A stretch of DNA of 64,000 bases, taken from positions 91,538 through 155,537 of the forward strand of contig CAYHBD010000009.1 in assembly GCA_964354805.1 (NCBI GenBank), read 5' to 3'. The stretch comes from an uncultured archaeon. GTDB taxonomy: Archaea; Iainarchaeota; Iainarchaeia; Iainarchaeales; GCA-2688035. The notes beneath the pieces are model-generated. The model was not told the DNA's origin. It saw only the letters and a list, made by a program, of their open reading frames with translations, and searched no databases. The position numbers and the translations under genes were made by a program. This document shows positions 3,371 through 57,634 of this stretch, piece by piece. The first letter of the stretch is position 1; every line of letters starts with the position of its first letter.

Positions 3371-3391
3371 TTTTGTTGGTTGGAAAAAAAA

Positions 3392-3534
3392 ATCCATAGT
3401 TTAAACAAAATGAAAGAAAAAAAAAAGGCAATTTCCGCAGGTGAAAAAATCAGTAGTTGGTTAAAGTGAAAGAAAAAGATGGTAATTCCGGCAGGTGAAA
3501 AAAATGTATAGTTTGGTTAAAGTGAAAGACAAGG
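3392..3534 (+). repeat. Three diverged tandem copies (~45-50 bp) of the rpoE start region. The two upstream copies encode rpoE-N-terminus-like peptides with ATG mutated to ATC.
   Basis: Units: atccatagtttaaacaaaatgaaagaaaaa / atcagtagttggttaaagtgaaagaaaaag / atgtatagtttggttaaagtgaaagacaag. Confidence 0.7.
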
Positions 3535-5873: not shown

Positions 5874-5955
5874 AACACAGGTTTTTGATACGGCAATAAT
5901 AAAAAAAGGCATTGGATAAGATTGGAAGCCAATAATTGAAAAAGGTGATGAAAAG

Positions 5956-6579: not shown

Positions 6580-6694
6580 ACCGCTTCAAGAAAATGATGT
6601 TGTATGATTTTAGGGGTTCTGATTTCTTGGCTGGCAGGCTGCAAGAGTTCAGGGGAAAGGGCTGTTTAAATATTTTTTTGGAGACTGTTTTGTT

Positions 6695-7696: not shown

Positions 7697-8786
7697 AACA
7701 AAAGCAGGAATCCTCTGTTGCGGGCTCAAAGAAAGCAAAGCCGCTGAAGAAATCTATGCATTGCAGCACCCGACATTGCATAAAAGAACAGGAAATGCCG
7801 GGTTGCAGCTTGCTTTGCCACAAGGCTTTATTGTAAACGGAATCTACGGCGAAGCTTTTTGCAAAAAATCGCCTTATTTGGCAGAGAAACAAGGAAAACA
7901 ATTTTTTGTTTCAAGGAACGGCTCCCTGGTTTGCGCCTGCACCCCGATTCCCGCCCCAAAATGGTATCACAAAACAACAACAGACGGCAAGCCAATGTCA
8001 AGCATAATGCTGCAGGAGGGCAAAGACACTCTGATTTCGAGCGTTTGGAACAATTGCTGTTATTTTCAGAACGGAACGCAATGCAAATTCTGCATATTGG
8101 GTTATCAAAAAGAAATGCAGTGGAAAAACGAAAAACAGGTTCTTGAAACACTGCTCGCAGCGCTGGAAGAAAACCCAGCATACCAGCTTCACCTGACAGC
8201 AGGCAACAGCGCCAGCCCGGACCACGGCTTGGCAAACTACGAAAAATACGTCAAAACAATCAGGAAAGAAACCAATCTGCCGGTTACATTGGAAATAAGC
8301 CCGCCTGAAGATTTAAAACAGCTCGAAAGCATAATCGCAGCAGGAGCAAATGGCTTTTCAATAAACATTGAAATATGGGATGAAAAAAAACGCAGGGAAA
8401 TCTGCCCTGGGAAATCAAAAATAAAACGCGAAAAATATTTCCAGGCATGGCAAAAAGCAGTTGATTTGCTCGGAAAATTCAAGACAAGCTCAGTGCTAAT
8501 AGTCGGCTTGGACAGCAAGGAAAATATTGCAGAAGGCATCAGGGCAATGGCCTGCATCGGAATAAAACCAGTCTTAATCCCGTTCAGGCCGTTCGCAAAG
8601 TCTGCACTGCATTATTTGCAGCCACCGAAAGCGCGAGAACTGATGAAATTGTCGGAAATTGCAGGAAAAGAATTAAAAAAAGCGGGCGCAAAGGAAAAAG
8701 AACTAATCGGCTGCGAACACTGCGGAGCATGCAGCCTTGAAAAAGATTTTCTGGTTAACGCAAGAAAGGAAAATGCGGAAAAGTGA
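7674..8786 (+). CDS. Putative radical-SAM/TIM-barrel Fe-S protein with a non-canonical Cys triad (CX7CX2C) and a C-terminal CEHCGAC cluster
   Basis: CYFQNGTQCKFCILG near the N-terminus, alternating beta/alpha pattern, and a second Cys cluster at the C-terminus. No canonical CX3CX2C. Confidence 0.35.
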   Translation: MDWKSLAETKAGILCCGLKESKAAEEIYALQHPTLHKRTGNAGLQLALPQGFIVNGIYGEAFCKKSPYLAEKQGKQFFVSRNGSLVCACTPIPAPKWYHKTTTDGKPMSSIMLQEGKDTLISSVWNNCCYFQNGTQCKFCILGYQKEMQWKNEKQVLETLLAALEENPAYQLHLTAGNSASPDHGLANYEKYVKTIRKETNLPVTLEISPPEDLKQLESIIAAGANGFSINIEIWDEKKRREICPGKSKIKREKYFQAWQKAVDLLGKFKTSSVLIVGLDSKENIAEGIRAMACIGIKPVLIPFRPFAKSALHYLQPPKARELMKLSEIAGKELKKAGAKEKELIGCEHCGACSLEKDFLVNARKENAEK

Positions 8787-8802
8787 TGAAAAATGAACTG
8801 CC

Positions 8803-9441
8803 CTAAAGCTTAAGAGCGCTTCTAAGGTGGCTTAAGTCCAATACAAAAACCATTAAAGTATTCTTTTTTGTGTCAATGACATATTCCCAACTCTCAGTGA
8901 TATCGATTCCGTCTTCTTCAGAAGCACGTTTTGTCATGACATCAACATAATCCAAAGCACTTTTTATTTCTTGGCTTCTTTCAAGACCCCTTTTTTTAAA
9001 AAAAACGAAGACGTTGTTTTTATTCATTGTTTGCAAGTCCCCAAACTTTCGCAAGTCCGTAAGTGCAAGATGTTTTTCTCCGTTAATTTCAACAACCCTT
9101 ATTGTTGGTGGCACAGGATACCCTTTTGCCCTAAGATTTTGAAACATCTTAAATTCTCTTTCAGCAATGCTGCTTTGAGTTTCACCGCAAAACTCTTTCA
9201 GGTTATATCTTTTTACAACAAGCCTTATTTTTTTATTTCCTTTACAGACTATAAAATTATAAGCCCTGCCATGCCGCCCCGCGGCGGGCATTTTCTCGGT
9301 TACTTGCAAAAGCCCAGGGCCTGTTATACCAAACAGCGCATTAACTTTCTTAATCTTTTGAACCCGGTGAACTGTATCAGGATGGAAATCCTTTTTTCCA
9401 CCCCTTAAAAAGTTTTTTTGGTGCCCGGATTTGTGCTTCAT
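8803..9441 (-). CDS. Hypothetical protein in the AT-rich island, with weak RIO/Kdo-kinase-like N-lobe similarity
   Basis: AEREFKMFQNLRAKGYPVPP resembles the RIO/Bud32/Kdo kinase helix motif, but there is no clear HGDL catalytic loop. Local GC is clearly below the window average. Confidence 0.3.
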   Translation of the reverse strand: MKHKSGHQKNFLRGGKKDFHPDTVHRVQKIKKVNALFGITGPGLLQVTEKMPAAGRHGRAYNFIVCKGNKKIRLVVKRYNLKEFCGETQSSIAEREFKMFQNLRAKGYPVPPTIRVVEINGEKHLALTDLRKFGDLQTMNKNNVFVFFKKRGLERSQEIKSALDYVDVMTKRASEEDGIDITESWEYVIDTKKNTLMVFVLDLSHLRSALKL

Positions 9442-9542
9442 AATAATTAATGTTATTAGAAAGTAATTAAATTGTTTAATGGTAGAAGAATATTACAACA
9501 TTGACTTAAGAAGGCAAATAAAGTTGTTTGTGGTTAACGCTT

Positions 9543-9878
9543 TTAGGCGAGCGCTTTTACGGCTTGTTCCTCAAACCCAATTTTTTCCATTGATTTTTTC
9601 ATCAACTCGTTGTCCAATTCAATCAATTGTTTTACCACAGGGTTTTTGTTATTGAGCTTGAACATGCTTGCCTTGCCGACTTTTCTGGTGTAAGTTACTG
9701 TATTGGCTTTTTCCAACTTGCCCCAGAAGGTTTCCAATGTATTCCAGGAAACATTGGCATTCCTGCAAATGTCTTTCTTTGAGTAGTCAAATATGTCGTT
9801 CTCTATCAAGAAATCCAAGACCCTAATTATCGGGGAATCGCCAAAGAACAGCACAAACAAAGACTTGTCTTCAGCCAT
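9543..9878 (-). CDS. Small winged-helix DNA-binding protein (putative transcriptional regulator), divergent from the next gene
   Basis: 111 aa with a predicted wHTH (RVLDFLIENDIFDYSKKDICRNANVSWNTLETF). It lies in the AT-rich island, with an AT-rich divergent promoter region at 9879..10077. Confidence 0.45.
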   Translation of the reverse strand: MAEDKSLFVLFFGDSPIIRVLDFLIENDIFDYSKKDICRNANVSWNTLETFWGKLEKANTVTYTRKVGKASMFKLNNKNPVVKQLIELDNELMKKSMEKIGFEEQAVKALA

Positions 9879-10077
9879 ACAAAGAAATCCCTTTTATAAT
9901 TGATATAACTACTTGTAGGTAAATAATTTAAATAGTAGAAGGCCAAGTTTGAGTGCAAAAGATATTTCGTTTTTTGACGGTAAGAAAGAAGCATTTTAAA
10001 AGTATCGTATGGGGGTATTTAAATAAGGAAAAAACGAAAAGAAAATATTAAATAGGAGAACTTACTTATAAAGGTAG

Positions 10078-10335
10078 ATGCACATGGCAGGAACTTCTTT
10101 TTTGACCTTCAAGAAAAATGACGTTGAACAAATACTGACAACGTTAGATATCGTCACAGAAAAAAAGGGCGTGAAAGAATTTATTTTAGATGAGAAAAAA
10201 GAGATTGCAAAGTGCTATGTCTGCGATGAAAAGCTTACTCCAGAAAACATAGGGAACATAATCAAAGGCTCAAAAATTCTCCTTTGTGACAATCCTTCCT
10301 GCTTTAGCGGATACCTTGTTGAGAAAAAACTTTAG
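10078..10335 (+). CDS. Hypothetical small protein with a CxxC...C...C putative zinc-binding motif
   Basis: CYVCDEK...LLCDNPSC. AT-rich island. Confidence 0.3.
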   Translation: MHMAGTSFLTFKKNDVEQILTTLDIVTEKKGVKEFILDEKKEIAKCYVCDEKLTPENIGNIIKGSKILLCDNPSCFSGYLVEKKL

Positions 10336-10341
10336 ACACTT

Positions 10342-11142
10342 ATGGCTGAATTTATTAACAAGGTAAAAAAACGATTTGGGGGAAAGGTAAAAATAGGCAT
10401 AAATCCCTCATTCGAAACTGAAAAGGCTGAAATCCATATTGGGCACAACTACAACATTACGATAAATCAGTTCGGAGACAAAACAGACCCAAAAAAAATC
10501 TTGGAAAGCTTTGAAAAAGAGCAAATACTTACAAGAGACGACCTACTTCTCCCAGACATAGAGCAAACAGAAACGGTTATCACAAGAAGTCAACTCCTGC
10601 TGTTCTACCGCCCCCATCTAAGCAAAAAAGATTTGGCTGCCCTCAATGACAGTCTTAGCATAATAGCTTTGGAAGATAAAGAACTGAATGAGGAAGCAAA
10701 AAAAAGACACGAGCAATTGTATAAAGCGTATAAAAAACGGGGTCTCGTGATATATAACTTTGCAAGAAGTGGGCTCTTTGAAACCGAAATAAAAGTAACC
10801 CTTGAAAGGATAATCAAGCAACATCTCGGAAAAGAAGTTAAAACAATAGATGAATTCAATAACTATTTTGAAGGACTAATTCAAAGACACCCCGCAAACA
10901 TTTATGTTAGCAAATACTGGGCTGAACATAGAGTATTGGATGAGATCCAAGAAAGATTGGAATTGATATTACGAGATAAAACAAGCTTAATCAAAATATA
11001 TTGCAGGGAACCGCAATTGGGGATGGTCAAAACTGTGTGTAACCAAGTAGAAAGTTTATTTACTATAACTCATGATGAGTATAGGTTTGGAAAAAATAAA
11101 GCATACACATTTTATCTGGCCCTTAAAGAAGATGCTGATTAA
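10342..11142 (+). CDS. Hypothetical protein (266 aa), no recognisable domain
   Basis: Long clean ORF in the AT-rich island. Its stop is immediately followed (ATG at 11143) by kae1. Confidence 0.35.
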   Translation: MAEFINKVKKRFGGKVKIGINPSFETEKAEIHIGHNYNITINQFGDKTDPKKILESFEKEQILTRDDLLLPDIEQTETVITRSQLLLFYRPHLSKKDLAALNDSLSIIALEDKELNEEAKKRHEQLYKAYKKRGLVIYNFARSGLFETEIKVTLERIIKQHLGKEVKTIDEFNNYFEGLIQRHPANIYVSKYWAEHRVLDEIQERLELILRDKTSLIKIYCREPQLGMVKTVCNQVESLFTITHDEYRFGKNKAYTFYLALKEDAD

Positions 11143-12168
11143 ATGCAGAGCAAAGACGGCATTACTTGCCTTGGCATTGAGAGCACCGCACTCTAGAGGG
11201 TTCTAGGCGGATATACTTTCGGTGCCGGAATAGTTAGCGACAGCTGCGGCAAATGCAATATTCTCGCAAACGAAAAGCACAGCGTTTCAACAGCACAGGG
11301 CGGCCTGATTCCCCGCGAATTGGCAGCGCACCATTTCAAGCACGCGAAGCAGGTGATAGAGGCAGCGCTGCAAAAAGCCAACCTGAAAATTGCAGATGTT
11401 GATTTGATTGCATTCAGCCAGGGGCCTGGCATTGGGCAGGCATTGAGGGTTGGGGCTGTTGCAGCAAGAACGCTTGCCCTCGCGCACAACAAGCCGTTGC
11501 TTGGCGTGAACCACTGCGTTGCACACGTTGAAATAGGAAAGGCACTTACTGGGGCAAAAAACCCGATTGTAGTTTATGTAAGCGGTGCAAACACGCAGAT
11601 AATCGGCTATGAGGAAGGAAAGTATCGTGTTTATGGTGAAACACTTGACATTGGAGTTGGAAATCTGCTGGATGCGTTTGGCAGGGCGCTTGGCTTGGGT
11701 TTCCCGGCAGGGCCTGTTCTGGACAAAATGTATTTTGAAAAAAAGAAATATGTTCCACTGCCTTACACTGTAAAGGGAATGGATTTGGCTTTCTCAGGGC
11801 TGCAGACAGCGGCAGAGCAAAAAATTGCAAATGAGAGAAAAGAGGACTTGGCTTACAGCCTGCTGCACAATGCCTTTGCAATGGTTACAGAGGTAAGCGA
11901 GAGGGCCCTTGCACACACTGAGAAGAACGAATTGCTGCTCACTGGCGGAGTTGCTGCAAGCAAGGCGCTGAGGGAAATGCTGCAGAAAATGTGCGATGCG
12001 CGTTCATGCAAGTTTTTTGTCCCGCCTTTTGATGTGTGCGTGGACCAGGGAACAATGATTGCATGGCTTGGATTGATAATGCACAAAGCAGGCAACAGGA
12101 TGAAAGTGGAAAACAGCGTTGTCAACCCAAAGCAGAGGGCTGACCAGATTGAAGTGAACTGGGTTTAA
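11143..12168 (+). CDS. kae1: tRNA N6-threonylcarbamoyladenosine synthase Kae1/TsaD. The N-terminal region carries a 21-nt insert with an in-frame TAG (11194..11196). The six-frame track starts at a TTG at 11320, which would delete the essential N-terminal motif.
   Basis: The frame is continuous from ATG 11143. CLGIESTA..[L*RVLGG]..YTFGAGIV flanks the insert, and HCVAHVEIG, the metal-binding His pair and a C-terminal GGVAAN-like region are all Kae1-typical. The gene is not fused to bud32. Confidence 0.8.
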
Positions 12169-16759: not shown

Positions 16760-16767
16760 GGGGCTTA

Positions 16768-16873
16768 TTCCTCAATTTTTATCCCGAACTCTTCATCAAT
16801 CTCTTTTGCGGTTTTCTTCACTCGTCAATTTTTATCCCGAATTCCTCATCTATTTCCTTTGCGGTTTTCTTCA
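16768..16873 (-). repeat. Tandem duplicate (2 x 53 nt) of the 3' end of the regulator gene. The extragenic copy encodes KKTAKEIDEEFGIKIEE-stop versus the genic KKTAKEIDEEFGIKIDE-stop.
   Basis: All 8 nucleotide differences fall at third codon positions in the copy's own frame, and the stop is retained (TGA to TAA). Confidence 0.8.
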
Positions 16874-17349: not shown

Positions 17350-17982
17350 TTGCAGAAAAAAGAAACCGGCACAACAGAGAAAAAGCAGAAACATGCTGAG
17401 AGTACAACTGAAAAAAAACAGGAGCAGACGGGAGAAGAGAAAAAGCAGTTGCACCAGCAAATTCAGGAACTTAAAGAGACATTGCAGCGCGTGCAAGCTG
17501 ACTTTGAGAACACATGCAAAAGGACGGAGAAAGAAAAGGCTGAATTCAGGAAGTATGCGAATGCTGCTATGGCAAAGGAATTGCTGCCTTTGCTTGACAG
17601 CATGGATGCTGCTGTTGAAAAGCTGCAGAAGCAGGAAGATGTGAAAAAGGAGGAGATGTTGAATGGATTGCGATTGTTGCGGATGCAATTGCTGCAGTTG
17701 CTGCAAATGCACGGGCTGCAGGAAATAAAATGCCTGGGCGAGAAATTTAATCCAATGCTGCATGAAGTAGTAACGCAGGGATGTGATGAAAGCAGGCAGG
17801 AGGATTGTGTGCTTGATGAACTGCAGAAGGGTTATTTGCTGAATGAAAGGGTTTTAAGGCATTCAAAGGTTAAAGTAAATAAGAAAAAAGAAGAGAAAAA
17901 AGGGAATGATGCTGAATCAACGGGTAAAAAAGAAGGGCAAAAGAATGGCGAAAAAAAGGGAATTGCTTCAAATAATGCATGA
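17350..17982 (+). CDS. grpE: Nucleotide exchange factor GrpE with a K/E-rich N-terminal extension; TTG start is uncertain
   Basis: LQRVQADFENTCKRTEKEK...LLPLLDSMD..., followed by dnaK and dnaJ. Confidence 0.85.
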   Translation: MQKKETGTTEKKQKHAESTTEKKQEQTGEEKKQLHQQIQELKETLQRVQADFENTCKRTEKEKAEFRKYANAAMAKELLPLLDSMDAAVEKLQKQEDVKKEEMLNGLRLLRMQLLQLLQMHGLQEIKCLGEKFNPMLHEVVTQGCDESRQEDCVLDELQKGYLLNERVLRHSKVKVNKKKEEKKGNDAESTGKKEGQKNGEKKGIASNNA

Positions 17983-18090
17983 AAAGGTGAGCAAAAGAAT
18001 GGTAAAGAGACCAAATCCAATTGATGTGCCGGATGAATTGTTTCCGGACATGCCGAATGACGGCGATGATTTTTAAGGGAGTGACGAGAA

Positions 18091-26783: not shown

Positions 26784-29174
26784 TTGCATATGGACCTTGA
26801 TTTCCACAAAATAGAGCAAAAATGGCAGGCGCACTGGGAAAAGAATAAGATATACAAATTCAACCCAAAAAGCAAGCAGCCTGTTTACAGCATAGACTCA
26901 CCGCCGCCGACTGTTTCTGGGACAATGCACCTGGGGCACGCATTTGCATTCACCCAGCAGGACTTCATTGCACGCTACAAAAAAATGCGCGGTTTCAACG
27001 TTTTCCACCCGTTCGGCTTTGATAACAACGGCCTGGCAACAGCGCTGATGGTTGAAAAAAAGCTTGGAATAAAACAGAAGAATTTCCAGAGAGACGAATT
27101 CATCAAAATCGTTCTGAAGGAAACAGCGGAAGAAGAGCGCAAGATGCTTGCAGCATTCAAAAGCATTGGATTAAGCGTTGACTGGAGCCTTTTATACAGG
27201 ACAATTGATGAGCTTGCAAGGAAAACAGCGCAATACAGCTTCCTTGATTTGTTCAAGCAGGGCAGGCTTTACCAGAAAGACGCTCCAACAATGTGGTGCC
27301 CGAGCTGCGAGACAGCGGTAGCACAGGCAGAGCTTGAGGACAGGGAAATTGAAAGCACCTTCAACGACATTGTTTTCAAAACAGAGCAGGGAAAAGAGGT
27401 AATAATTGCAACAACAAGGCCGGAATTGCTGCCTGCGTGTGTTGCTGTTTTCGTTCACCCAAGCGATGAAAGATTCAATCACTTGGTTGGAAAAAAATTA
27501 AAGGTGCCGTTGTTTGATTTGCTTGTTCCAGTGCTTGAGGACCAGAGAGCAGACCCTGAAAAAGGGACAGGAATTGTAATGTGCTGCACTTTCGGAGACC
27601 AGACAGACATGGAATGGTATCAGGCGCACAACCTGCCAATGAGGGTTGCAATAACAAAAGACGGCAGAATGAACGAACTCGCGGGAAAATTCAAAGGCAT
27701 GACTCTTGTTGAAGCAAGGAAAGCGGTTATTGAGGATTTGCGCAAAGAAGGTCTGCTTAAAGCACAAAAGCCGATAAAGCACGCTGTGAATGTTCATGAG
27801 AGATGCAAAACAGAAATGGAGATTCTGCCAAGCAAACAGTGGTTTATACACTACCTTGACTTGAAAGACGAGTACATAGTGAAAGCCGATGCATTGCAAT
27901 GGGTTCCAAAATTCATGAAATCAAGGTATGACAACTGGATCAAGGGATTGCAGTGGGACTGGTGCATTTCAAGGCAGCGCTATTATGGTGTGCCGTTCCC
28001 GGTATGGTACTGCAAGAAATGCGGAGAGGTAATGCTGGCTGAAGAAAAGCAATTGCCTGTTGATCCCCTAAAAGACAATCCCTTAAAGAAATGCAAGTGC
28101 GGAAGCGGCGAATTTGTTGGGGAGAAAGACACTCTTGACACATGGTTCATTTCATCGCTCACTCCGCAGATCAACTGCAAATGGGCCGAGGATTCCGCTT
28201 TCTTCAAAAAAATGTTCCCAATGGATTTGAGGCCGCAGGGACATGACATTATTGCATTGTGGGCGTTCAACACAATTGTCAAAGCATTGTTCCACCAGCA
28301 GCAGCTGCCCTGGAAAACAATTACAATAAACGGCTGGGCGCTTGATTCCAAAGGAAAAAAGATGTCAAAGAGCCTGGGCAATGTAATAAAGCCAGAGGAA
28401 ATGATCCAGAAATACTGCGCTGACGCACTGCGCTACTGGGCAGGCCTGCCTGTATTGGGAGAGGACGTTCCATTCATGGAAAAGGAAATGGTTGCGGGAA
28501 AAAAGTTTTTGGTGAAACTGCACAATGCCGCAATGTTTGTTGCAAACTCAACAAAAGGCGTGAAAATCGGGAAAATCAATAAAAAGGAATTAATGCCTGA
28601 GGACAAAGCGATTTTGAGCAAGCTGAACAGGCTGATAAAAGAATGCACTGATGCCTGTGAAAGGTTTGAGTTCAGCAAGGCACTGAATCCAGCAAGGAAT
28701 TTCTTCTGGCTGCAGTTCGCTGACTTTTACATTGAGGAAGTTAAAACAAGGGTTTACAACAAAAAAGACAAAAGCGGGAAAATAGCTGCAGCCATATTGC
28801 AGGAAGCAATTTGGGATTGCCTGCTTTTGCTTGCGCCATTTTTGCCGCACACAACGGAGGAAATAGCGCAGACAATGTTCAAGCACAAGCTGAAAGAGGA
28901 AAGCATTCATTTGCTACAATGGCCCTCGGCAGATGAAAAAATGATTGATGAAAAAGCAGAGCAAACAGGCGAACTGATTAATGAGGTCATTGCAGCAATG
29001 AGGAAAGAGAAAAGCAAAGCGCAAAAGCCGATGAATGCGGAAGTGCAAAAAGCAATTGTTTCATTGGCTGAACCGGAAAAGCTAAAGGAAGGGCTTGACA
29101 CTATTAAAAGGACAATGAACCTAAAGGAAATTGAATTAAAGAAAGGCGAGTTGGCAGTTGAATTGGAATTCTGA
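26784..29174 (+). CDS. valS: Valyl-tRNA synthetase (class I, archaeal type)
   Basis: SPPPTVSGTMHLGHA (PPP + HxGH), WDWCISRQRYYGVP, KMSKSLGNVI. The 796-aa length fits a compact ValRS better than IleRS or LeuRS. Confidence 0.7.
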   Translation: MHMDLDFHKIEQKWQAHWEKNKIYKFNPKSKQPVYSIDSPPPTVSGTMHLGHAFAFTQQDFIARYKKMRGFNVFHPFGFDNNGLATALMVEKKLGIKQKNFQRDEFIKIVLKETAEEERKMLAAFKSIGLSVDWSLLYRTIDELARKTAQYSFLDLFKQGRLYQKDAPTMWCPSCETAVAQAELEDREIESTFNDIVFKTEQGKEVIIATTRPELLPACVAVFVHPSDERFNHLVGKKLKVPLFDLLVPVLEDQRADPEKGTGIVMCCTFGDQTDMEWYQAHNLPMRVAITKDGRMNELAGKFKGMTLVEARKAVIEDLRKEGLLKAQKPIKHAVNVHERCKTEMEILPSKQWFIHYLDLKDEYIVKADALQWVPKFMKSRYDNWIKGLQWDWCISRQRYYGVPFPVWYCKKCGEVMLAEEKQLPVDPLKDNPLKKCKCGSGEFVGEKDTLDTWFISSLTPQINCKWAEDSAFFKKMFPMDLRPQGHDIIALWAFNTIVKALFHQQQLPWKTITINGWALDSKGKKMSKSLGNVIKPEEMIQKYCADALRYWAGLPVLGEDVPFMEKEMVAGKKFLVKLHNAAMFVANSTKGVKIGKINKKELMPEDKAILSKLNRLIKECTDACERFEFSKALNPARNFFWLQFADFYIEEVKTRVYNKKDKSGKIAAAILQEAIWDCLLLLAPFLPHTTEEIAQTMFKHKLKEESIHLLQWPSADEKMIDEKAEQTGELINEVIAAMRKEKSKAQKPMNAEVQKAIVSLAEPEKLKEGLDTIKRTMNLKEIELKKGELAVELEF

Positions 29175-29224
29175 AAAAAATTGAAGAAAGAAAAGGCGAG
29201 CTTGCGGTTGAAATGCAATTCTGA
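29130..29224 (+). repeat. Duplicate of the valS 3' end (14 codons plus stop) 50 nt downstream, frame-shifted relative to the gene
   Basis: IELKKGELAVELEF-stop versus IEERKGELAVEMQF-stop. Both end in ttctga. Confidence 0.7.
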
Positions 29225-34233: not shown

Positions 34234-34842
34234 ATGGCTGCTGAGAAAGAGAAGAAGGCAAGGGTTGTTGACAAGTGGAAGAAAAAGCAGTGGTTTGAAC
34301 TGGTTGCGCCGAAAGAGTTTGATGAAAAGGTCATTGGCGAAACAATTGCTGAAAAAGAGAAAAACCTTTTGAACAGGGTTGTGAGCGTTAATCTGGGCGA
34401 CCTGAGCGGCCAGAGGCAGAGAAGGCACATAAGCATCTTGTTCAAGGTAGTGCAGGTTGAAGGAAAGAGGGCGAAAACAATTGCAATTGGCCACAGCATA
34501 AGCGGGGGCTTTGTGAACAGAATGATCAGGCGGAGAATGAGCAAGCTTGAGGTAACCCAGCAGATTGACATTGCTGAAGGAAAAAAACTGAAGGTCAAAA
34601 CCATTGTTCTTTCTGTTAAAAAGCTGAGCAGCAAGCAGGAAACTGCCCTGCGAAACCAGCTGGCTGAAAGGATTGAAAAAATGTACAGGAAAAAGACAGA
34701 GCTGCAGACAATGCAGGAATTGTTTTTCGGAGTCACGGCATCCAAGCTTTTCAAGCCACTTTTAAAGATCGCGCCACTGAAGAAAATCGAAGTGATTGAA
34801 AGCAGGCTGATTGGACAAGGGGCAATTGAACAAAAGGCTTAA
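34234..34842 (+). CDS. rps3ae: 30S ribosomal protein S3Ae
   Basis: VVDKWKKKQWFELVAPKEF...VNLGDLSG matches the S3Ae family N-terminus. About 200 aa. Confidence 0.85.
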   Translation: MAAEKEKKARVVDKWKKKQWFELVAPKEFDEKVIGETIAEKEKNLLNRVVSVNLGDLSGQRQRRHISILFKVVQVEGKRAKTIAIGHSISGGFVNRMIRRRMSKLEVTQQIDIAEGKKLKVKTIVLSVKKLSSKQETALRNQLAERIEKMYRKKTELQTMQELFFGVTASKLFKPLLKIAPLKKIEVIESRLIGQGAIEQKA

Positions 34843-34917
34843 AGAAAAATTGAATGACTGAATTAAATTTAAATAAGTTAACGCAGGCTGATTGGATAGA
34901 ACTGTCGAAGGGAAAGT

Positions 34918-39640: not shown

Positions 39641-39843
39641 ATTGTCACCAAAAACAATTTTTAGTTTTCTCTCCAAATTCCAAAAAATCTCCTAAAAAAA
39701 TTTTAGTTTTCTTTCCAATTTCCCAAAAATCACCCAAAAAAAATTTTGATTCCACCTAATTTCCCAAAAATGCCAACCTCAAATTACCCCAAAAAAAAAT
39801 TTTAATTTCCACCCACTTCCAAAAAACCTTTTTCCCAAATCAC
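39641..39843 (-). repeat. Four degenerate tandem ~40-55 bp units between the secF stop and the secD start, each ending in a T7-T9 run (oligo-T terminator-like)
   Basis: Minus-strand units begin GGTGATTT(T)TGGGAAA... or GGGGTAATTTGAGG..., and each ends in AAAATTTTTTT(TT). Confidence 0.6.
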
Positions 39844-45871: not shown

Positions 45872-45964
45872 CGCCAGCATAGCGCAGGCAATGAAAAGCA
45901 GGTGAAGGCTGCCCAATATAAAAATGGCTGCAAGGGGAAAAAGAATTGCAAAAACTGGGGCATT

Positions 45965-46003: not shown

Positions 46004-48025
46004 TTGAAATCCTGCATTAAAATTCCTGCAATCGCATTCCTTGCAATGCTGTTGATCGGGGCAGCATCAGCCCAAAAAATGAGGCATAAAGAGAAAAAGT
46101 TAATACAAGCGAATTTAGTGCTAGCAATTGGTATAGTTTCTTTACTGATTTTTTTTAGTTTGGGAAGTATTAGAGAGCCAGTTAAAGAAGGTTTAACGAG
46201 CTTTGCCGTATCAAGTTTTGATGAAGTTGTTCCCAATTGTGGCAATAATCTTTGCGAGAGTGGAGAAATTGCTGAAAGTTGTCCTGATGATTGCGATATA
46301 TGTTCTGAAGAAAAATGTGATGTGTATGCCCCTATTCAGCATAAGAAATATTTTAAGGCTGAAAAGGAAGTTTATGGTTATGACCCGCCTTTCCAACCAG
46401 CTCGAGTAACCTTTGACGCTAATAATAGGCCATATATCAGAAAGAATGACTGTAACACTACAAATGACTTCGCGTTTCGATGTTTTACAAATCAGCTAAT
46501 TATTCAAACCCTTAACAGCAGTGGAGAGTGGGAGTATTGGGATTTATCTAATATAGTAAAAACATACAAAGACCAAATGTTTAGATCCAGCACTCAAACA
46601 GATGAAAGAGTAATTATTGATTCTGACGGAGATATGTATCTTGCAGTTGAATACAATCTTGAACCTTCTCTGCTACTTTTATATTCAAATGATGAGGGTA
46701 AAAACTGGCAGAGTTATCCTATCCAAGGGGTGTCTATGAAGTTTGAACCATGGCCAGGGCGAAATACTCCATCAATTTTAATCACAAATCGTGATAATAA
46801 GGAATTATATTTTATTATACCCCAAAAATTATCAAATGGCACCTTAGATCTCTCCCATAAAATAAAATTATCAGATAATGCCTGGGAACCACTAAATCCT
46901 GGAGGGTATATGAGTTATTCTTTTAGTTATGGTGATCTAACTTTTTTTGTTTGGGCAGAATCAATTAGTTCTACTCCTAATGAAAACGGAACTCCATCTT
47001 ACATTGCCGTGTATAATAGGACAAGCAGATTGTTAAGTCAACCATATCATATTGGAAATGGTGGAACTTATAATGGGGGGACAGGACTCACTGAGCCCCA
47101 TAATCAACCAACCTTATGTTTGGATTCCAAAGGGTATATTCATGTTATCCTAGGAGGCCATAATGAGCAATTTAAATATTACAAATCAAAATATCCTTTA
47201 AATATCACAAAGTGGGAAGCACCCGTCTATCTTGGGGATCCAAATATTGATAATGTACAGAATAAACTAACTTATCCTGCACTACTTTGCGGAAAGGATG
47301 ATACTTTACATCTTGCTATGCGTTCAATAATTCCTACTTATAGTTTCACTTTATCTTATACAAGAAAAAAAACAGGTCAGGGTTGGGAAAAAATTAAGCC
47401 GCTTGTTTTACCATTCAGAGCCTATTATGGACACTGGTATCATCAACTGAACATGGATAATAATGGCGTATTGTACTTAAATTATTGGTATCTTGCAAAT
47501 AATTTATTTGATGATGAGCTTGAGGCTTATCAACAAAAGTGGCCAGACGAAGACATTAATCTTAGCGGAGCATACAAACCAACAAACAACACATATTGGT
47601 GGAATCTCTATCCACTATACCACAGTCCAGCGATGCTTGTTTCCTACGATAACGGAGATTCTTGGAAGCTCGCTGTTACAAGTGATTTTATAAAAGGAAT
47701 GAACAAAGAAATCTGCGGAAACCAGCAATGCGAAGCAGGCGAAACCTTTGAAAGCTGCCCAACAGACTGCAAATGCGGCAATAGCGCCTGCGAAGTAGGC
47801 GAAACTTTCACAACATGCCCGGCAGACTGCAAATGCGGCAATGCAACATGCGACGCAGGCGAAACATTCGAAACCTGCCCACGAGACTGCCCTCAAGAAT
47901 GCGTTGACAACGAAAAACTGGTAGGCTACTATATCCCCCAGTGGAAAAGGGGGGAAATAACCATGCTGACACTAATGCAGAAAATGAGGCAATGGAAAGC
48001 TGGAACAGGATGCCAGCCAGCATAG
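45995..48025 (+). CDS. Secreted protein, family member D: an N-terminal Cys mini-module, a BNR/propeller-like core, three C-terminal Cys mini-modules and the conserved tail; apparent TTG start
   Basis: Signal MIKLKSCIKIPAIAFLAMLL. C-terminus CGNQQCEAGETFESCPTDCKCGNSACEVGETFTTCPADCKCGNATCDAGETFETCPRDCPQECVDNEKLVGYYIPQWKRGEITMLTLMQKMRQWKAGTGCQPA. Confidence 0.7.
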   Translation: MIKLKSCIKIPAIAFLAMLLIGAASAQKMRHKEKKLIQANLVLAIGIVSLLIFFSLGSIREPVKEGLTSFAVSSFDEVVPNCGNNLCESGEIAESCPDDCDICSEEKCDVYAPIQHKKYFKAEKEVYGYDPPFQPARVTFDANNRPYIRKNDCNTTNDFAFRCFTNQLIIQTLNSSGEWEYWDLSNIVKTYKDQMFRSSTQTDERVIIDSDGDMYLAVEYNLEPSLLLLYSNDEGKNWQSYPIQGVSMKFEPWPGRNTPSILITNRDNKELYFIIPQKLSNGTLDLSHKIKLSDNAWEPLNPGGYMSYSFSYGDLTFFVWAESISSTPNENGTPSYIAVYNRTSRLLSQPYHIGNGGTYNGGTGLTEPHNQPTLCLDSKGYIHVILGGHNEQFKYYKSKYPLNITKWEAPVYLGDPNIDNVQNKLTYPALLCGKDDTLHLAMRSIIPTYSFTLSYTRKKTGQGWEKIKPLVLPFRAYYGHWYHQLNMDNNGVLYLNYWYLANNLFDDELEAYQQKWPDEDINLSGAYKPTNNTYWWNLYPLYHSPAMLVSYDNGDSWKLAVTSDFIKGMNKEICGNQQCEAGETFESCPTDCKCGNSACEVGETFTTCPADCKCGNATCDAGETFETCPRDCPQECVDNEKLVGYYIPQWKRGEITMLTLMQKMRQWKAGTGCQPA

Positions 48026-48108
48026 CGCAGGCAATGAAAAGCAGGTGAAGGCTGCCCAATATAAAAATGGCTGTAAAGGAGAAAAAGAATTGCAAAAATG
48101 GGAGCAGT

Positions 48109-52428: not shown

Positions 52429-55400
52429 GTGATAATTATGCCGATAAAAATTGACATTGATGCAAGTAGTGCGGTTAAGAGCTACTATGATTCAGTTGCA
52501 GCTGAAGTGGAAAAACAGCTTTCCGTTGCAGCAGAGGCAAAGTCAAGGGGCTTTGATGTAAGCACTGCAATCGAAACAAAGCCTGTGGCAGACCTTGCCG
52601 ACAGGACTGAAACAATTATCGGGCCGCCGGGAATTGCAAAAAGGTACAGGGAAGTGTTTGAGGAAAAGAATGGAAACAGGATGGATGCAATATTCCAAAT
52701 ATTCAAGGAAATAATCGACCAGCAGTGGTGCAAGATTGTGGACGACCAGAAAAGGATTGAACAGGCAATCAAAACATGCCTTGTTTTGAATACCGAGGGC
52801 GTTGTTGTTGCACCGCTTGACGGGGTGCCTGAAATAAAAATAAGCAGAAACCCTGATGGAAGCAAATACATCGATGTTTACTACGCAGGCCCGATAAGGG
52901 CAGCAGGCGGAACATCAGCAGTATTGCCGCTTATTTTAGGGGATTACGCAAAGCAGTTGCTCGGTCTGGACAGGTTCAAGCCGACAGAGGATGAAGTGGA
53001 GAGATATGTTGAAGAATGCCAGATTTATGAAGAGATTGTAAGCAGGCAGTACAGGCTGAGCGAGGCTGAAGTGAAAAAAATAATTAGGGGCTGCACTGTG
53101 TGCATCAACGGCGAACCAACGGAAGAAAGGGAAGTGGCAGTGCACAGGAACCTGCCGAGAATTGAAAGCAACAGGATAAGGGGCGGAATGTGCCTTGTGA
53201 TAAGCGAAGGCGTTGCACTAAAAGCGCCGAAGATTCTGCAGTTTTCGAAACAGCTTGGATTGGACTGGAGCTGGCTTGAAGGAATAATAAAGGTGGGAAA
53301 AAGCGAAAGCGGCGAGAGAAAAATTGAGCCGAACGAAAAGTTTTTGGAGGGCACAGCAGCTGGAAGGCCGATCTTCTGCTATCCTGAGCGAATCGGGGGC
53401 TTCAGGCTGCGCTACGGCAAAGCAAGAAACACCGGGATAATGGGGAAAGGGATTCACCCTGCAACAATGTTTCTGCTGGATGAATTTGTTGCTGTTGCAA
53501 CACAGCTGAAAGTGGAAAGGCCTGGAAAAGCAGCAGGAATTTTCCCGGTTGATTCTATTGAAGGGCCGATAGTAAAGCTGCTGAACGGCTACGTTGTGAA
53601 AGTAAACAGCCTGCAGCAGGCAATTGAATTGAAACAGAAAATTGCCCAGATTCTTTTCTTGGGTGACATTCTTGTAAGCGTTGGCGATTTTCGGCACAGC
53701 GCCCATCCATTGGTGCCAGCCGGCTATTGTAGTGAATGGTGGGCAAAGGAACTGCAAAGGCAGCTGCGAAAAATCCCTGTGGAAAAAGAGCAGTTCGAGG
53801 AAATAATTGCAAAGCCGGAAAATGTAAGCATTGAACAGGCAATTGAATTGAGCGAAAAATTCAATGCGCCGCTGCACCCGAACGCGCTGTATTACTATGA
53901 CGCTTTGAACAAAAATGAATTAATTCAATTAATTAGTTTCTTGCAGAAAGCTGAAACAACCAAAGAAGGCAAAAAAATTTCCGCGATTGAATTGCCAAAA
54001 CAAGGAGCGGAAAAACAACTGCTTGAAAAAATTGGTTTGCCACACAAGGTTGAGGGCGACAAAATAATAATTGACGCAGATAATGCCCTTGCTTTAACCA
54101 AAACACTTGCCTTGCAGAAAAGCAGCCCTGAAATTGCAGGCATAATAGAAAAATCCGCTGATGTAATTGACGCATTGAACAATTTAAGCGGCCTTGTGAT
54201 TAGAGACCTTTGCGGAACATTTGTCGGAAGCAGGATGGGCAGGCCTGAGGCAAGCAGGCCGAGGAAAATGATCGGAAACCCAAACGTGCTTTTCCCAATA
54301 GGCTTGCACGGTGGCAACATCAGGAGCGTCAACAAGGCAATGGCAAGTGAAACAGAGGGCAGCCCAGGCAAAATACTGGTTGAAATAGCTTTATTCAAAT
54401 GCCCGGAATGCAGGCAGGTAAGGGAGCAGCCATTCTGCCCTGCATGCGGCAAAAGAGCTGAAAAAATAAACCAGTGCCCGAACTGCGGCAGCATTTCTGC
54501 AACGGAAAAATGCGCAAAATGCGGCAAGATGACATCGCCTTTCTCAAAAAGGGAGATTGACCTAGGCCTTACAATGCAACAGGCAGCACAGAACCTTGGC
54601 ATAAAAGTGCCTGAACTTGTAAAAGGAGTAAAAGGGACAATAAACAAGGACAGAGTAACCGAACCCCTGGAAAAAGGACTGCTGAGAGCAAAGCACGACA
54701 TGCATGTTTTCAGGGACGCGACAATAAGGTATGAGCTGATAAATGCGCCCTTAACGCACTTCACTGCAGCAGAGATTGGAATAAGCATTGCCAAGCTGCG
54801 CGAATTAGGCTACAGTAAGGACAGTGAAGGAAAGGAATTGGAAAAGAACGGGCAATTGGTCGAATTAATGCCCCAGGACATAATAATCCACGAGCAGGCA
54901 GGCGAATTCTTTGCAAAAGAAACAAAATTCATAGACGAACTGCTGCAGCGCTTCTACAAAATACAGCCATACTTCAACGTAAACAAAAAAGAAGATTTGG
55001 TGGGGCAACTGCTGCTTGGGCTAGCACCCCACACAAGCGCGGCAATAGTCGGCAGGGTGATTGGCTTCACAAAAGCAAGATGCTGCTTTGCCCACCCATT
55101 CTTCCACCAGACAAAGAGGCGAAACATAGACGGAGACCAGGATTCACTGCTTCTGCTTATGGATGCCCTGCTGAATTTCTCGCATTCGTATCTGCCGAGC
55201 AGCAGGGGAGGCAGAATGGATGCACCGCTCGTTTTCACCATTGCCTTGAAACCAACAGAAATAGATGATGAGTGCTATCAAATGGAGAAATGCAGCAGCT
55301 ATCCGCTTGAATTGTATGAAATGGCCCAGAAAATAATGCCGGCTGATGTAAGCGGCATTGAAAGAGTGAAAGACAGCCTTGGCAAGCAAAGCCAGTATGA

Positions 55401-55875
55401 CGGATTCGAGTGCACGCATTCAACAAGCCAGTTTGATGCCGGTCCTACAACAAGCAGATATGTTACGCTTGGCACAATGGAGGAAAAGCTGAGGGCGCAG
55501 GCAAAACTGCAGTTCAAAATCGCGGCATGCGAAGGAAAAGACGCCATGGAAAGAGTGATGGTATCGCACCTTTTGCCTGACATAATCGGAAACACCAGGG
55601 CATTCAGCAGGCAGCAGTTTCGCTGCACTGCATGCAACGCAAAAATGAGGAGGATTCCGCTTGACGGAAAATGCATTCAGTGCGGAAAACCCAGCGTCAT
55701 TCTGACAATAGCGCAGGGCAGCGTGCGAAAATACCTGCTGATAGCGAAAGCGCTTGCGGAAGAATACCAGCTAAGCGATTACCTGAAGCAGAGGCTTGAA
55801 TTAGCCGGCAGGGAAATAGACAGCATATTCCAAAACGAGCAAAAAGAGCAAAAAAAGCTGGCGGAATTTGTTTAA
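52429..55875 (+). CDS. dp2: DNA polymerase II (PolD) large subunit DP2, no intein
   Basis: 1148 aa. CPECRQ...CPACG and CPNCG...CAKCG zinc modules, and the conserved DP2 catalytic core with C-terminal Cys clusters (CTACNA...CIQCG). Confidence 0.9.
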   Translation: MIIMPIKIDIDASSAVKSYYDSVAAEVEKQLSVAAEAKSRGFDVSTAIETKPVADLADRTETIIGPPGIAKRYREVFEEKNGNRMDAIFQIFKEIIDQQWCKIVDDQKRIEQAIKTCLVLNTEGVVVAPLDGVPEIKISRNPDGSKYIDVYYAGPIRAAGGTSAVLPLILGDYAKQLLGLDRFKPTEDEVERYVEECQIYEEIVSRQYRLSEAEVKKIIRGCTVCINGEPTEEREVAVHRNLPRIESNRIRGGMCLVISEGVALKAPKILQFSKQLGLDWSWLEGIIKVGKSESGERKIEPNEKFLEGTAAGRPIFCYPERIGGFRLRYGKARNTGIMGKGIHPATMFLLDEFVAVATQLKVERPGKAAGIFPVDSIEGPIVKLLNGYVVKVNSLQQAIELKQKIAQILFLGDILVSVGDFRHSAHPLVPAGYCSEWWAKELQRQLRKIPVEKEQFEEIIAKPENVSIEQAIELSEKFNAPLHPNALYYYDALNKNELIQLISFLQKAETTKEGKKISAIELPKQGAEKQLLEKIGLPHKVEGDKIIIDADNALALTKTLALQKSSPEIAGIIEKSADVIDALNNLSGLVIRDLCGTFVGSRMGRPEASRPRKMIGNPNVLFPIGLHGGNIRSVNKAMASETEGSPGKILVEIALFKCPECRQVREQPFCPACGKRAEKINQCPNCGSISATEKCAKCGKMTSPFSKREIDLGLTMQQAAQNLGIKVPELVKGVKGTINKDRVTEPLEKGLLRAKHDMHVFRDATIRYELINAPLTHFTAAEIGISIAKLRELGYSKDSEGKELEKNGQLVELMPQDIIIHEQAGEFFAKETKFIDELLQRFYKIQPYFNVNKKEDLVGQLLLGLAPHTSAAIVGRVIGFTKARCCFAHPFFHQTKRRNIDGDQDSLLLLMDALLNFSHSYLPSSRGGRMDAPLVFTIALKPTEIDDECYQMEKCSSYPLELYEMAQKIMPADVSGIERVKDSLGKQSQYDGFECTHSTSQFDAGPTTSRYVTLGTMEEKLRAQAKLQFKIAACEGKDAMERVMVSHLLPDIIGNTRAFSRQQFRCTACNAKMRRIPLDGKCIQCGKPSVILTIAQGSVRKYLLIAKALAEEYQLSDYLKQRLELAGREIDSIFQNEQKEQKKLAEFV

Positions 55876-55955
55876 GTGGAAGGGCAGACCCGAAACAATG
55901 TTTTTTAAAATAAACCTGAAAATCTTATTTATATAAACTGCTAAAGGGAAAAAGT

Positions 55956-56237
55956 ATGGCTGCGAATAAACCTGCATTTCACGGGATTACAAAATCAAGT
56001 ATGCACAATGTTGGTGGCGGCAGGCGCAGAGGAGGCACCAGAGGAGTCAGCGTTTACAAAAACGTGGTCATACTAAAGCCAGGGCAGAGAATAGTTTACA
56101 GATCAAGCTGCCCGCATAGCATTGTGGACGCAAAAGGGAGAACAATTAGACTTTTCAAGGAGTGGGCATTAACAGCAAGGAAAAAGATAAGCAGGCAAGG
56201 GGGTAATAAACCCACGTCGATGAGTGAAGAGGTATAA
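55956..56237 (+). CDS. Hypothetical small basic protein
   Basis: 93 aa, Arg/Gly-rich N-terminus. No confident family assignment. Confidence 0.3.
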   Translation: MAANKPAFHGITKSSMHNVGGGRRRGGTRGVSVYKNVVILKPGQRIVYRSSCPHSIVDAKGRTIRLFKEWALTARKKISRQGGNKPTSMSEEV

Positions 56238-56250
56238 AAGGGCCAAAAAA

Positions 56251-56362
56251 TTATTCTCCCATCAATTCCTTTTCCAAAACAGCCCTGAGTTTTTTTGTGC
56301 CGAAGGTTTTATTCTCCCATCAGCTCTTTTTCCAGCACAGCTCTTAATTTTTTCGCATCGAA
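56251..56362 (-). repeat. Duplicate of the orc1/cdc6 3' end (17 codons plus stop) immediately downstream of the gene
   Basis: Gene FDAKKLRAVLEKELMGE-stop versus copy FGTKKLRAVLEKELMGE-stop. 12 nt differences in 54 nt, 8 of them synonymous. Similarity ends exactly at the stop codons. Confidence 0.8.
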
Positions 56363-57634
56363 CCCGAGCTTTATGAGCGTGGTTGCTCCCCTTACTCCTT
56401 TTCCGCTTGCTGTTGTCAAAAGCAGCCCGTATGTGTCCAATTCATTGATGTATTCCCTGAACCATCTGCTGCTTACAACGCTTTCGTTCAGGGAGAGAGC
56501 AATGCGCTTGTATTCGTTGTAGATGTCACCGCTGCAGAAAACGCCTTCCTCGCTTTGGCCTGAACCTGTTATTCTCTGCATTCCTTTTCCCTGTGTTGTG
56601 AGCAGGGAAATCGCGTACAACACCAGCTGCTGCTGCTTTGGCAGGGTTGCAACCATGTTAAGGATGATTTCCTGTTCAACGCTTGTCTTTGCCTTTCTTA
56701 CCATGACATCAGTTACCTCGCTGAATTGCATTTTGTCCGCCTCTTCTCCGGCTCTAAGAAGCAGCATTATTGCTGTTCTTGCATCCCCTGTTTCCTGCGC
56801 TGCGATTGCGGATGCGAGGTTGATTGCGCTGCTGCTTACAGCGCCGGGCCTGAATGCCTTTGCAATCCTTTCCTGTAGGATTGCCTTGAGCTCTTCAGCG
56901 TTGTAAGGCGGGAAAACCATTTCTTTTTCCAAGAGTGCGCTTTTTGTTCTTGCATCAAGGCGCTCTTTGAAGAAAAGGTTGTTGCTTATTCCAAGGATGC
57001 TGATGCTACCGAATGGCAGCTCGTCGTTTGCCCTTGTAAGCGAGTAAACCAGTTCGTCCAAATCCTTGGCTTTGTCTATTTCATCCAGCACAATGATGAG
57101 GTTCTTTCCTTTTTCAGATGCCGCCTGCAGCAGTTTTTCGAACACAAAGGAAGCGCTGTATCCAATGAAGTCCTCTTTTGGATGGAATTTCTGCATTGCC
57201 TTGAGCAGAACCTTATATTTGCTGTTGTGGTTTCTGCAGTTAACGAAAGCGAAGTCAACTGGCGAATTGCTTTGCTCAATGAATTGCTGCAATTGCTGCA
57301 ATACGTGCTTTACAGTGACTGTTTTTCCTGTTCCGACTTTTCCGTAAATGAAAACATTGTCTGCTTTTTTCCCCTGCAGAGTTGCAGCAAGCGCTGTGCT
57401 GATTTGCTCGATCTGCTTTTGCCTGAATGGCAGGGCATCAGGGACATAGTGCGGGGAAATAATGTTTTTATCCAGAAAAACAGTGTGCTTTGTGATAAAC
57501 TGCTGGAAAATGTTCTGCTGCGGAAATGTTTCGTCCTGTAGTGAAACAATTTTTTTCTGCTGCAGCAATGTTTCGTTCTGCGCTGAAACAATTTTCTGCC
57601 CCAGTCCCACCAATGTCTGCTGTGCCACACCCAT
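56309..57634 (-). CDS. cdc6: Orc1/Cdc6 replication initiator (AAA+ and winged helix); the N-terminus contains an in-frame tandem 14-aa repeat and the true start is possibly internal
   Basis: FIYGKVGTGKTVTV Walker A, IVLDEID Walker B, a sensor region, and a C-terminal wHTH. An AT-rich candidate origin lies immediately upstream (57635..57980). Confidence 0.85.
   Translation of the reverse strand: MGVAQQTLVGLGQKIVSAQNETLLQQKKIVSLQDETFPQQNIFQQFITKHTVFLDKNIISPHYVPDALPFRQKQIEQISTALAATLQGKKADNVFIYGKVGTGKTVTVKHVLQQLQQFIEQSNSPVDFAFVNCRNHNSKYKVLLKAMQKFHPKEDFIGYSASFVFEKLLQAASEKGKNLIIVLDEIDKAKDLDELVYSLTRANDELPFGSISILGISNNLFFKERLDARTKSALLEKEMVFPPYNAEELKAILQERIAKAFRPGAVSSSAINLASAIAAQETGDARTAIMLLLRAGEEADKMQFSEVTDVMVRKAKTSVEQEIILNMVATLPKQQQLVLYAISLLTTQGKGMQRITGSGQSEEGVFCSGDIYNEYKRIALSLNESVVSSRWFREYINELDTYGLLLTTASGKGVRGATTLIKLGFDAKKLRAVLEKELMGE

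Follow-up and report, generated by a model that had tools for sequence, protein, structure and literature searches.

A non-coding copy of the orc1/cdc6 gene end in an uncultured Iainarchaeia lineage, and its possible origin by tandem duplication and allelic exchange

Two described systems come close to a gene whose 3′ end is found a second time behind its own stop codon. In microhomology-mediated tandem duplication (MTD), reported to be universal, archaea included, segments of ~10-500 bp are duplicated and easily revert (bioRxiv 10.64898/2026.02.28.708716). In Escherichia coli, the icd gene has, at the site of e14 (phage 21), a working C-terminal end and a downstream pseudogenic copy, icdC, and recombination yields chimeric tails (PMC13626634). 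Besides these analogues, no described equivalent of the structure considered here was found in the literature. It lies in a stretch of 64,000 nucleotides (hereafter, the window) of contig CAYHBD010000009.1 (assembly GCA_964354805.1) from an uncultured archaeon of the Iainarchaeales, in which a gene of the replication-initiator type, orc1/cdc6, has its last 17 codons and its stop repeated behind it as a relic. In the reading favoured here, which is on balance somewhat probable, the relic would be the former 3′ end of orc1, displaced and no longer coding, from which the working copy diverged by later allelic exchange.

As in MTD, the duplicated units in the clade to which the window belongs are 42-64 nt long and arranged head to tail, with 4-5 nt of junction microhomology in two sibling cases described below, namely the ends of the genes for valyl-tRNA synthetase (ValRS) and for a helix-turn-helix (HTH) regulator. 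They differ from MTD in that the orc1 arrays of the clade contain a non-matching spacer of 4-10 nt, in that the synonymous divergence of the copies goes far beyond what the age of the clade would predict, and in that the survivors span a stop codon and leave the protein unchanged. The likeness to icd/icdC lies in a pseudogenic downstream tail that differs mostly by synonymous or conservative changes; in E. coli, however, a 15-kb prophage with a site-specific integrase stands between the copies and the element brings the new tail, whereas the orc1 copies are 4 nt apart, with neither element between them nor integrase. Two further processes can leave gene ends behind. Homology-facilitated illegitimate recombination was reportedly described in naturally transformable bacteria by de Vries and Wackernagel and by Prudhomme et al., both in 2002. 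By one homologous anchor and one microhomology join, it can leave duplicated gene ends next to imported DNA; it is not known from DPANN archaea. It would fit a relic beside lineage-specific cargo, but predicts variable lengths of relics and spacers rather than tandem units in perfect register. Partial 3′ ends of tRNA genes are the att repeats of integrases that flank genomic islands and are made by site-specific recombination. There, too, short 3′-end relics mark the border of a variable island, but the tRNA repeats flank the inserted element, whereas the orc1 relic adjoins its own gene, which is protein-coding.

The working tail (copy B; 56309..56362, minus strand) comprises the last 17 codons and the TAA of orc1, TTCGATGCG...GGAGAATAA, and encodes FDAKKLRAVLEKELMGE followed by the stop. 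A spacer of 4 nt (56305..56308, minus strand; AACC in the sense orientation) separates the orc1 stop from the extragenic relic (copy A; 56251..56304, minus strand), in which the tail is repeated together with its TAA (TTCGGCACA...GGAGAATAA, encoding FGTKKLRAVLEKELMGE and a stop). A run of six T (T6; 56245..56250, minus strand) stands immediately behind the relic stop; the stop of a convergent open reading frame (ORF) of 93 amino acids follows 13 bases beyond, and the gene of the large subunit of DNA polymerase D, PolD-DP2, also convergent, lies further on. The coordinates and sequences that a first, sequence-only reading of the window had given for the duplicate were borne out, as was its statement that the homology ends exactly at the stop codons, since the ungapped match ends at both of them. 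The two copies differ at 12 of 54 nt (78% identity), and chance is ruled out as the source of the match, the probability of at least 42 matches in 54 being ~2e-15 per comparison and ~5e-8 once every position and any offset up to 400 is allowed for. Relative to orc1, the relic is in the +1 frame (offset 58 nt), with an in-frame TGA 5 codons upstream and no start codon of its own.

The host gene (56309..57529, minus strand; stop codon at 56309..56311) stays open up to an ATG at 57634, and the alignment with outgroup Orc1 proteins, which are 406 amino acids long, begins at ~57529. Its product matches the Pfam families Cdc6_lid (2e-18), Cdc6_C (4e-17) and AAA_16/AAA_22, the AAA+ domain, the lid and the C-terminal winged helix all being present, and among 2131 homologues the best are ORC1-type proteins of Diapherotrites/Iainarchaeia; by these matches, the predicted protein is an ORC1/Cdc6. 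The duplicated 17 residues are its final ones, beyond the winged-helix domain.

The same structure is found in related genomes, where the sequence-only reading had proposed to look for it. The 90% cluster of the closest orc1 hit has five members, the contigs of which were compared. L001 (GCA_053536015.1), 10% diverged in its orc1 DNA, has the arrangement and the AACC spacer of the window, with a 1-nt deletion in the relic. In L028 (a JGI Ga0315276 contig) and L064 (GCA_030692205.1) the junction is a variant, with the spacer GCTTTCTGGT and a relic one codon longer (GFDAKKLRAVFEKELTG...) that carries an ATG>ACG change and a 1-nt deletion. L060-L063, four assemblies of one lineage, have one tail with TTTTTT directly after it. 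A single orc1 tail is also all that more distant relatives have (72-79% amino-acid identity); in several of these (L008, L030, L031 and L058) a short spacer separates the convergent orc1 and DP2 genes. A scan of the GTDB species representatives gave no genome closer than 79%. The T6 behind the relic is probably the original transcription terminator signal of orc1, as judged from the relic-free L060, in which TTTTTT directly follows the TAA, and no hairpin terminator of the bacterial type was found around the site. That an assembler had concatenated two strain alleles might be suspected of a metagenome-assembled genome (MAG) from a strain-diverse population, but is almost certainly wrong, because the junction recurs in the independent, 10%-diverged MAG L001 and as a variant in the JGI contig and another MAG (L028, L064), while the relics have lineage-specific substitutions and indels of their own and three further assemblies share the HTH duplication.

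The position of the relic frame with respect to the gene is not constant among these lineages. The window has an offset of 58; L001 begins with 58 and continues with 57 past the 1-nt deletion, by which its frame changes to 0 part of the way through; for L028 the values are 64 and, further along, 63, the frame of L028 and L064 being broken again. That the relic is untranslated is shown by these lineage-specific frameshifts. A recoding signal (programmed frameshift or readthrough) was also considered and fails, the frame of the relic relative to the gene not being conserved.

The divergence between the two copies is nevertheless of a coding type. Seven codons differ by synonymous changes only (8 nt), and two neighbouring codons near the 5′ edge differ non-synonymously, D>G and A>T (4 nt). 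The 12 differences fall 4/1/7 on the three codon positions, and 10 are transitions and two transversions. The codon-wise comparison that had been proposed along with the sequence-only reading confirmed a significant synonymous bias: by the Nei-Gojobori method, Sd is 9 over 10.5 synonymous sites (pS 0.86) and Nd 3 over 40.5 sites (pN 0.074). This pS is higher than those within the clade (0.33-0.36) and between the clade and the outgroup L002 (0.72); the five relic pairs pooled give pS 0.71 and pN 0.076. The accompanying argument that an untranslated duplicate cannot accumulate such a pattern does not hold as it was put, as it overlooks that changes in the genic copy must be synonymous, and ~9 of the 12 changes are genic. 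The appropriate null model, in which the relic decays neutrally and the gene takes synonymous changes only, was simulated conditional on 12 differences and with transition/transversion ratios of 2-10, and across these ratios at most two amino-acid differences were obtained at P = 0.001-0.007.

That simulation is exactly the model of an in-place tandem duplication followed by point mutation only, without recombination. In its favour, the sibling cases are tandem with microhomology, the relic behind ValRS decays with 5 changed residues, and relics contain frameshifts; however, besides the simulated P values, the A/B pS exceeds the within-clade values although the duplication is shared in the clade, L028 and L064 have an identical relic with divergent genic tails, and the split of three relic to nine genic changes, described below, has P ~6e-5 under free mutation at each of the 54 sites of the relic. 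Divergence from identical copies by mutation alone is rejected for orc1 on the simulation and the excess of pS, and the model as a whole is very unlikely. Copies identical at birth can still be reconciled with the data if recombination later replaced one of them; indeed, the coding-type divergence calls for recombination with diverged alleles.

To see which copy had changed, the differences were polarised with outgroups and the five sequences of the clade. Of the 12, ~9 were assigned to the genic copy (CTC>TTA, AGG>AGA, GTT>GTG, TTG>CTG, AAG>AAA, GAA>GAG, TTG>CTG, GCA>GCG) and ~3 to the relic (GAT>GGC, GCA>ACA). The relic is 7/54 nt from the genic tail of L002 and the genic tail of the window 14/54; 10 of the 13 codons for the same amino acid are identical between the relic and L002, versus 47.7% gene-wide (P = 0.03). 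The identity of the relic to L002 is 87%, versus a mean of 71%, and just 0.5% of the gene's 18-codon windows reach this level. These are strong hints, not proof, that the genic copy gained its differences otherwise than by mutation in place, or that the relic was protected or renewed. Since it resembles the genic tail of L002 and since the relic of L028, which abuts the DP2 stop, occupies the expected site of the ancestral tail, the relic looks more like a set of older codon states, i.e. a former resident tail, than like imported DNA. Its 'FGT' codons can be aligned alternatively to the L028 spacer, and may in part be spacer instead of diverged tail. In the sequence-only reading, the relic had most likely evolved as coding sequence in another lineage and been brought in by recombination; the coding-type divergence and the recombination stand, but the polarity is probably in part reversed, the genic copy rather than the relic being the likely newcomer.

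Recombination between diverged lineages is directly visible in the gene ends, the tails being recombination mosaics. The protein encoded by the last 45 Orc1 codons is identical in all five clade members, the genic tail included, while the synonymous polymorphism is dense and mosaic. L028 and L064 differ by 5.2% over the whole of orc1, but in its final 90 nt at 16 positions, CTG CGC versus TTA AGA among them; no difference is left between the two in the last eight codons, in the spacer or in the relic, and 9-10 of the first 30 nt of their genic tails differ, which places a breakpoint within the genic tail. The grouping by tails (window, L001 and L060 versus L028 and L064) clashes with the gene-wide distances, and the genic tails of the second group are coded with the relic-like codons AAG GAA TTA. 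ValRS in the MAG of L001 is a further mosaic: between L065 251..2635 and 26790..29174 of the window the central ~600 nt are 37-46% diverged and the rest 10-15%, which indicates a large import from a distant lineage.

The orc1 end borders a variable island. Between the convergent orc1 and DP2 genes (55876..56250 in the window) different small genes are found in every lineage. The cargo of the window is the 93-amino-acid ORF (55956..56237, plus strand), which has no Pfam match, no homologue in any related locus and none in L002, and the same island holds unrelated small genes in L001 (3659..5581), L060 (11306..11960) and L002 (11222..12013). The L001 cargo consists of three genes, a nucleotidyltransferase among them, and for one of the genes homologues occur in the L004 lineage, likewise between orc1 and DP2; the cargo of the window and of L001 differs despite an identical junction. 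The duplicated tail hence lies at the edge of a variable island that is swapped between lineages. DP2 itself (52429..55875, plus strand; 1148 amino acids) has in the window a tail of the 'old type' and no relic. Its last 27 nt are L002-like and the 45 nt before these show no difference from L060, a state equally compatible, on these comparisons, with a crossover and with ancestral retention; no L002-like recombination tract was detected in the 3′ end of DP2 at a resolution of 30 codons. The DP2 of L001, the closest MAG (5582..10456; 1624 amino acids), has an intein inside, with LAGLIDADG and Intein_splicing hits, which is absent from the DP2 of the window.

The orc1 relic has siblings, and the earlier statement that the window has four or more such cases holds (orc1, HTH regulator, ValRS, surface proteins). 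At the ValRS end (29121..29224, plus strand) there is a perfect 50-nt tandem duplication, flanked by a CTGA microhomology that recreates TTC TGA. It is absent from the 94%-identical L059 and from L065, and the flank GGGATAG.GGCAAAAAAA that stands behind the single stop in L059 stands behind the relic stop in the window. Apart from one base, the 3′ half of the ValRS relic is the coding tail of L065, the variants of the relic being coding variants of L065. At the end of the HTH regulator gene (16765..16873, minus strand) the duplication is again a perfect tandem one, of 53 nt: an out-of-frame TGA, the first triplet of the second unit, is now the stop of the gene (16818..16820), and the original TAA lies at 16765..16767. 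Seven differences are all at third codon positions, and the microhomology is approximate (TGAAG versus TAAG). The duplication is common to L066-L068, three further assemblies from different sources. In comparison with these the relic of the window is identical over 33 nt, after which 7 of 21 nt differ in a coding-like manner (GIKIEE-stop versus GIQVEE-stop, TAA versus TAG); the divergence begins exactly where the downstream synteny stops, with the crossover inside the relic. Identical relics of 36 nt (100%) are found behind two paralogous surface proteins with Cys repeats (45886..45921 and 48029..48064), and the genic tails before them differ, KLWSTGTGC-stop versus RQWKAGTGCQPA-stop; in the second case (47987..48064, plus strand), RQWKAGTGCQPA and the stop are followed at an offset of 42 nt by the relic RQ-stop-KAGEGCPI-stop.

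Outside the window, the end of DP2 is duplicated in L060/L061 and in L064, with a genic tail AAG AAA TTR GCA GAR, a spacer of 8 nt and then an old-type relic AAA AAG CTG GCG GAA; the old-type tail is coding sequence in the window, in L001 and in the outgroups. The DP2 spacer AGCAGATT resembles the flank behind the relic, AGCAAAAT, with agreement at 6/8 positions in L060. In L060, two DP2 tail relics follow one another (11800..11960), the further one being a third, shorter copy of the tail; in L064, relics of orc1 and DP2 stand back to back at 1516..1640, in the ancestral convergent order and between the working tails. In ~130 kb of clade sequence, at least seven genes have a short tandem duplication at the 3′ end, with relics proper behind six of them. 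Tandem repeats with a period of 30-120 occur at 0.97 per 10 kb in the clade, whereas other DPANN loci (734 kb) gave 0.18 per 10 kb, a ~five-fold difference, and among the 876 kb scanned the tail relics are confined to this clade.

The anatomy common to the cases is that of a gene with a new tail and stop, 0-10 nt, the old tail and stop, and the old downstream flank; it points to ordinary short tandem duplication that would survive only if it spans a stop. This is suggested by the gap-free arrays with microhomology, by the likeness of DP2 spacer and flank, and by the excess of repeats throughout the clade. In the favoured reading, a segment of 58-64 nt (the last ~17 codons and the stop of orc1) would have been tandemly duplicated across the stop in the ancestor of a small Iainarchaeia (DPANN) clade, presumably by a duplication of the microhomology type. 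The upstream copy would have retained frame and stop and become the working tail, and the downstream copy would have been left in the old place beside the old terminator T-run and the convergent neighbour; the protein being unchanged, the duplication would have been neutral. Later, rather than at birth, the copies would have diverged, as short recombination tracts from alleles that had evolved under coding constraint overwrote the genic tail. Such overwriting is proposed because nearly all differences lie in the working copy and because the gene end borders an exchanged variable island. As MTD arrays are reversible by deletion between the repeats, L060 at orc1 and L028 at DP2 look like revertants, by way of the identical last 12 nt.

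Several observations weigh against this sequence of events. In the window, the AACC spacer has no counterpart in front of the genic tail or behind the relic, so that orc1 is no clean tandem array, and a microhomology is not recognisable at its duplication junction, the flank behind the relic varying among lineages. The blocks of synonymous change in the genic tails of orc1 and DP2 roughly coincide with the duplicated segments, which later, independent tracts do not predict and which a tail already diverged when it was placed does. The polarisation is based on few sites and an outgroup close to saturation, and when the HTH duplication was polarised with the outgroup L069, which is too diverged, no clear polarity emerged. 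Finally, the relics of the window and L001 have 6 differences, where ~16 would be expected from the synonymous sites of the gene (Poisson P = 0.004); such slow change needs one of three things, namely a synonymous divergence inflated by recombination, constraint on the relic, or recent exchange. Other intergenic DNA is likewise slower than synonymous sites (e.g. ~9% downstream of ValRS).

Part of this would be accommodated if the relic were foreign. According to this alternative, the last ~54 nt of orc1 of an L002-like lineage, with or without cargo, would have been integrated by way of homology, as an anchor, on the DP2 side and would have been joined illegitimately just behind the resident stop; where convergent stops are a few bases apart, viable joins would be restricted to within a few bases of the stop. 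The relic is indeed nearer to the L002 coding tail than to the resident tail and is always on the island side, beside cargo that varies with the lineage; the copies look diverged at birth, with blocks of change that match the duplicated segment; the orc1 and DP2 relics of L064, together and in native convergent order, look like one inserted junction fragment; short spacers and junction microhomology are accounted for; and the ~40 nt behind the ValRS relic are unusually diverged from L059. However, old-type codons are also ancestral in several outgroups, so that import is unnecessary, and the resident coding tails of L028 and L064 hold the relic-like codons themselves. Furthermore, the perfect-register arrays of ValRS and HTH would be a coincidence if joins were illegitimate, all relics are 36-60 nt long where donor ends would be expected to vary, and the window and L001 have unlike cargo behind an identical junction. 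An imported relic is accordingly possible but rather doubtful, and the homology-facilitated illegitimate joining invoked in the sequence-only reading is not demonstrated, the sibling cases being perfect tandem duplications with junction microhomology.

A more general version, in which homeologous recombination at gene ends would in this DPANN clade regularly keep both mismatched tails, the incoming tail and stop being joined by microhomology before the resident ones, is unlikely. If it were true, relics would be a direct, datable record of the transfer of DNA between lineages, and their density would reflect a lineage-specific repair or recombination pathway instead of ordinary replication slippage.

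The relic might also be functional, either as a translated alternative C-terminus (by +1 frameshift or readthrough) or as a cis element, e.g. of the convergent terminator region, and such an element would account for its slow change. The relic holds an A7/T7 run, the first long stretch of T behind the plus-strand ORF, with T6 following for orc1, and it has been retained in a compact genome. The frame, on the other hand, is not conserved, being +1 in the window, shifting in L001 and broken in L028/L064, and there is no start codon; the relic is lost in L060, the slowness is shared with other intergenic DNA as noted for ValRS, and an Rfam search around the site gave no match to an RNA family. 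A functional relic is therefore slightly less probable still than divergence by mutation alone.

The synonymously differing replacement tail with a displaced old tail is just the icd/icdC pattern (PMC13626634), the locus is a variable island, and the relic might be the att remnant of an integrase element that targeted the 3′ end of orc1 and supplied a new tail. In orc1, however, only 4 nt lie between the tails and the cargo lies outside them. A third copy of the tail beyond the cargo, as an integrase model predicts, was found on neither strand of the window, L001, L028 or L002, and no integrase or recombinase was found among the cargo genes, those of the relatives showing NTP_transf_2 or no domain. 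This origin is highly improbable. Three other candidates were rejected. A template/variable repeat pair of the diversity-generating retroelement (DGR) type is contradicted by differences that are synonymous and not adenine-specific and by a housekeeping gene as target. The target-site duplication of a transposon with an excision footprint would give copies identical at birth, and we know of no element with a target duplication of ~50 nt. Origin-recognition-box repeats do not apply, the repeats upstream of orc1 belonging to a separate tandem repeat, which is in frame, and no dyad being present in the tail copies.

That separate repeat is an in-frame tandem duplication of 42 nt at the 5′ end of the orc1 ORF (57513..57595, minus strand; KIVSAQNETLLQQ / KIVSLQDETFPQQ). 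It sits in a clade-specific N-terminal extension that the outgroup proteins lack; relatives have two or three copies of a 21-nt unit in this extension (e.g. DETLSVQGETLSVQGETRSVQGET in P0244), the copy number being variable, and the stretch may be either coding or origin-region DNA. Other short repeats were observed elsewhere. The 3′ end of grpE has a 57-nt tandem duplication in relatives (L059 879..990, L066 3228..3339) and ~1.5 copies in the window (~17900..18010), where the ORF ends in another frame and at another position. Intergenic tandem repeats of the window comprise ~4 copies of 42 nt at 39645..39832 and 2.6 copies of 56 nt at 3386..3529, which may include duplicated gene starts; a repeat at 34776..34896 contains ATGACTGAA, which suggests a duplicated 5′ gene end.

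The relic itself is without obvious action, a non-functional trace of a known kind of mutation and not a new functional element, and its value is that of evidence. It shows frequent short tandem duplication in an uncultivated DPANN lineage with a small genome, and frequent recombination between alleles 10-25% diverged, with breakpoints at gene ends beside variable islands. For annotation, such relics are a hazard, as small ORFs, frameshifted genes or assembly errors may wrongly be called in their place. Stop-spanning duplications are, moreover, a neutral class of mutations that preserves a snapshot of an older or foreign allele next to the current one, so that a genome-wide census could measure the rates of recombination and duplication in organisms that cannot be grown. 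The greater interest lies less in the single relic than in the density of relics in this clade, which is informative on duplication and recombination in DPANN archaea.

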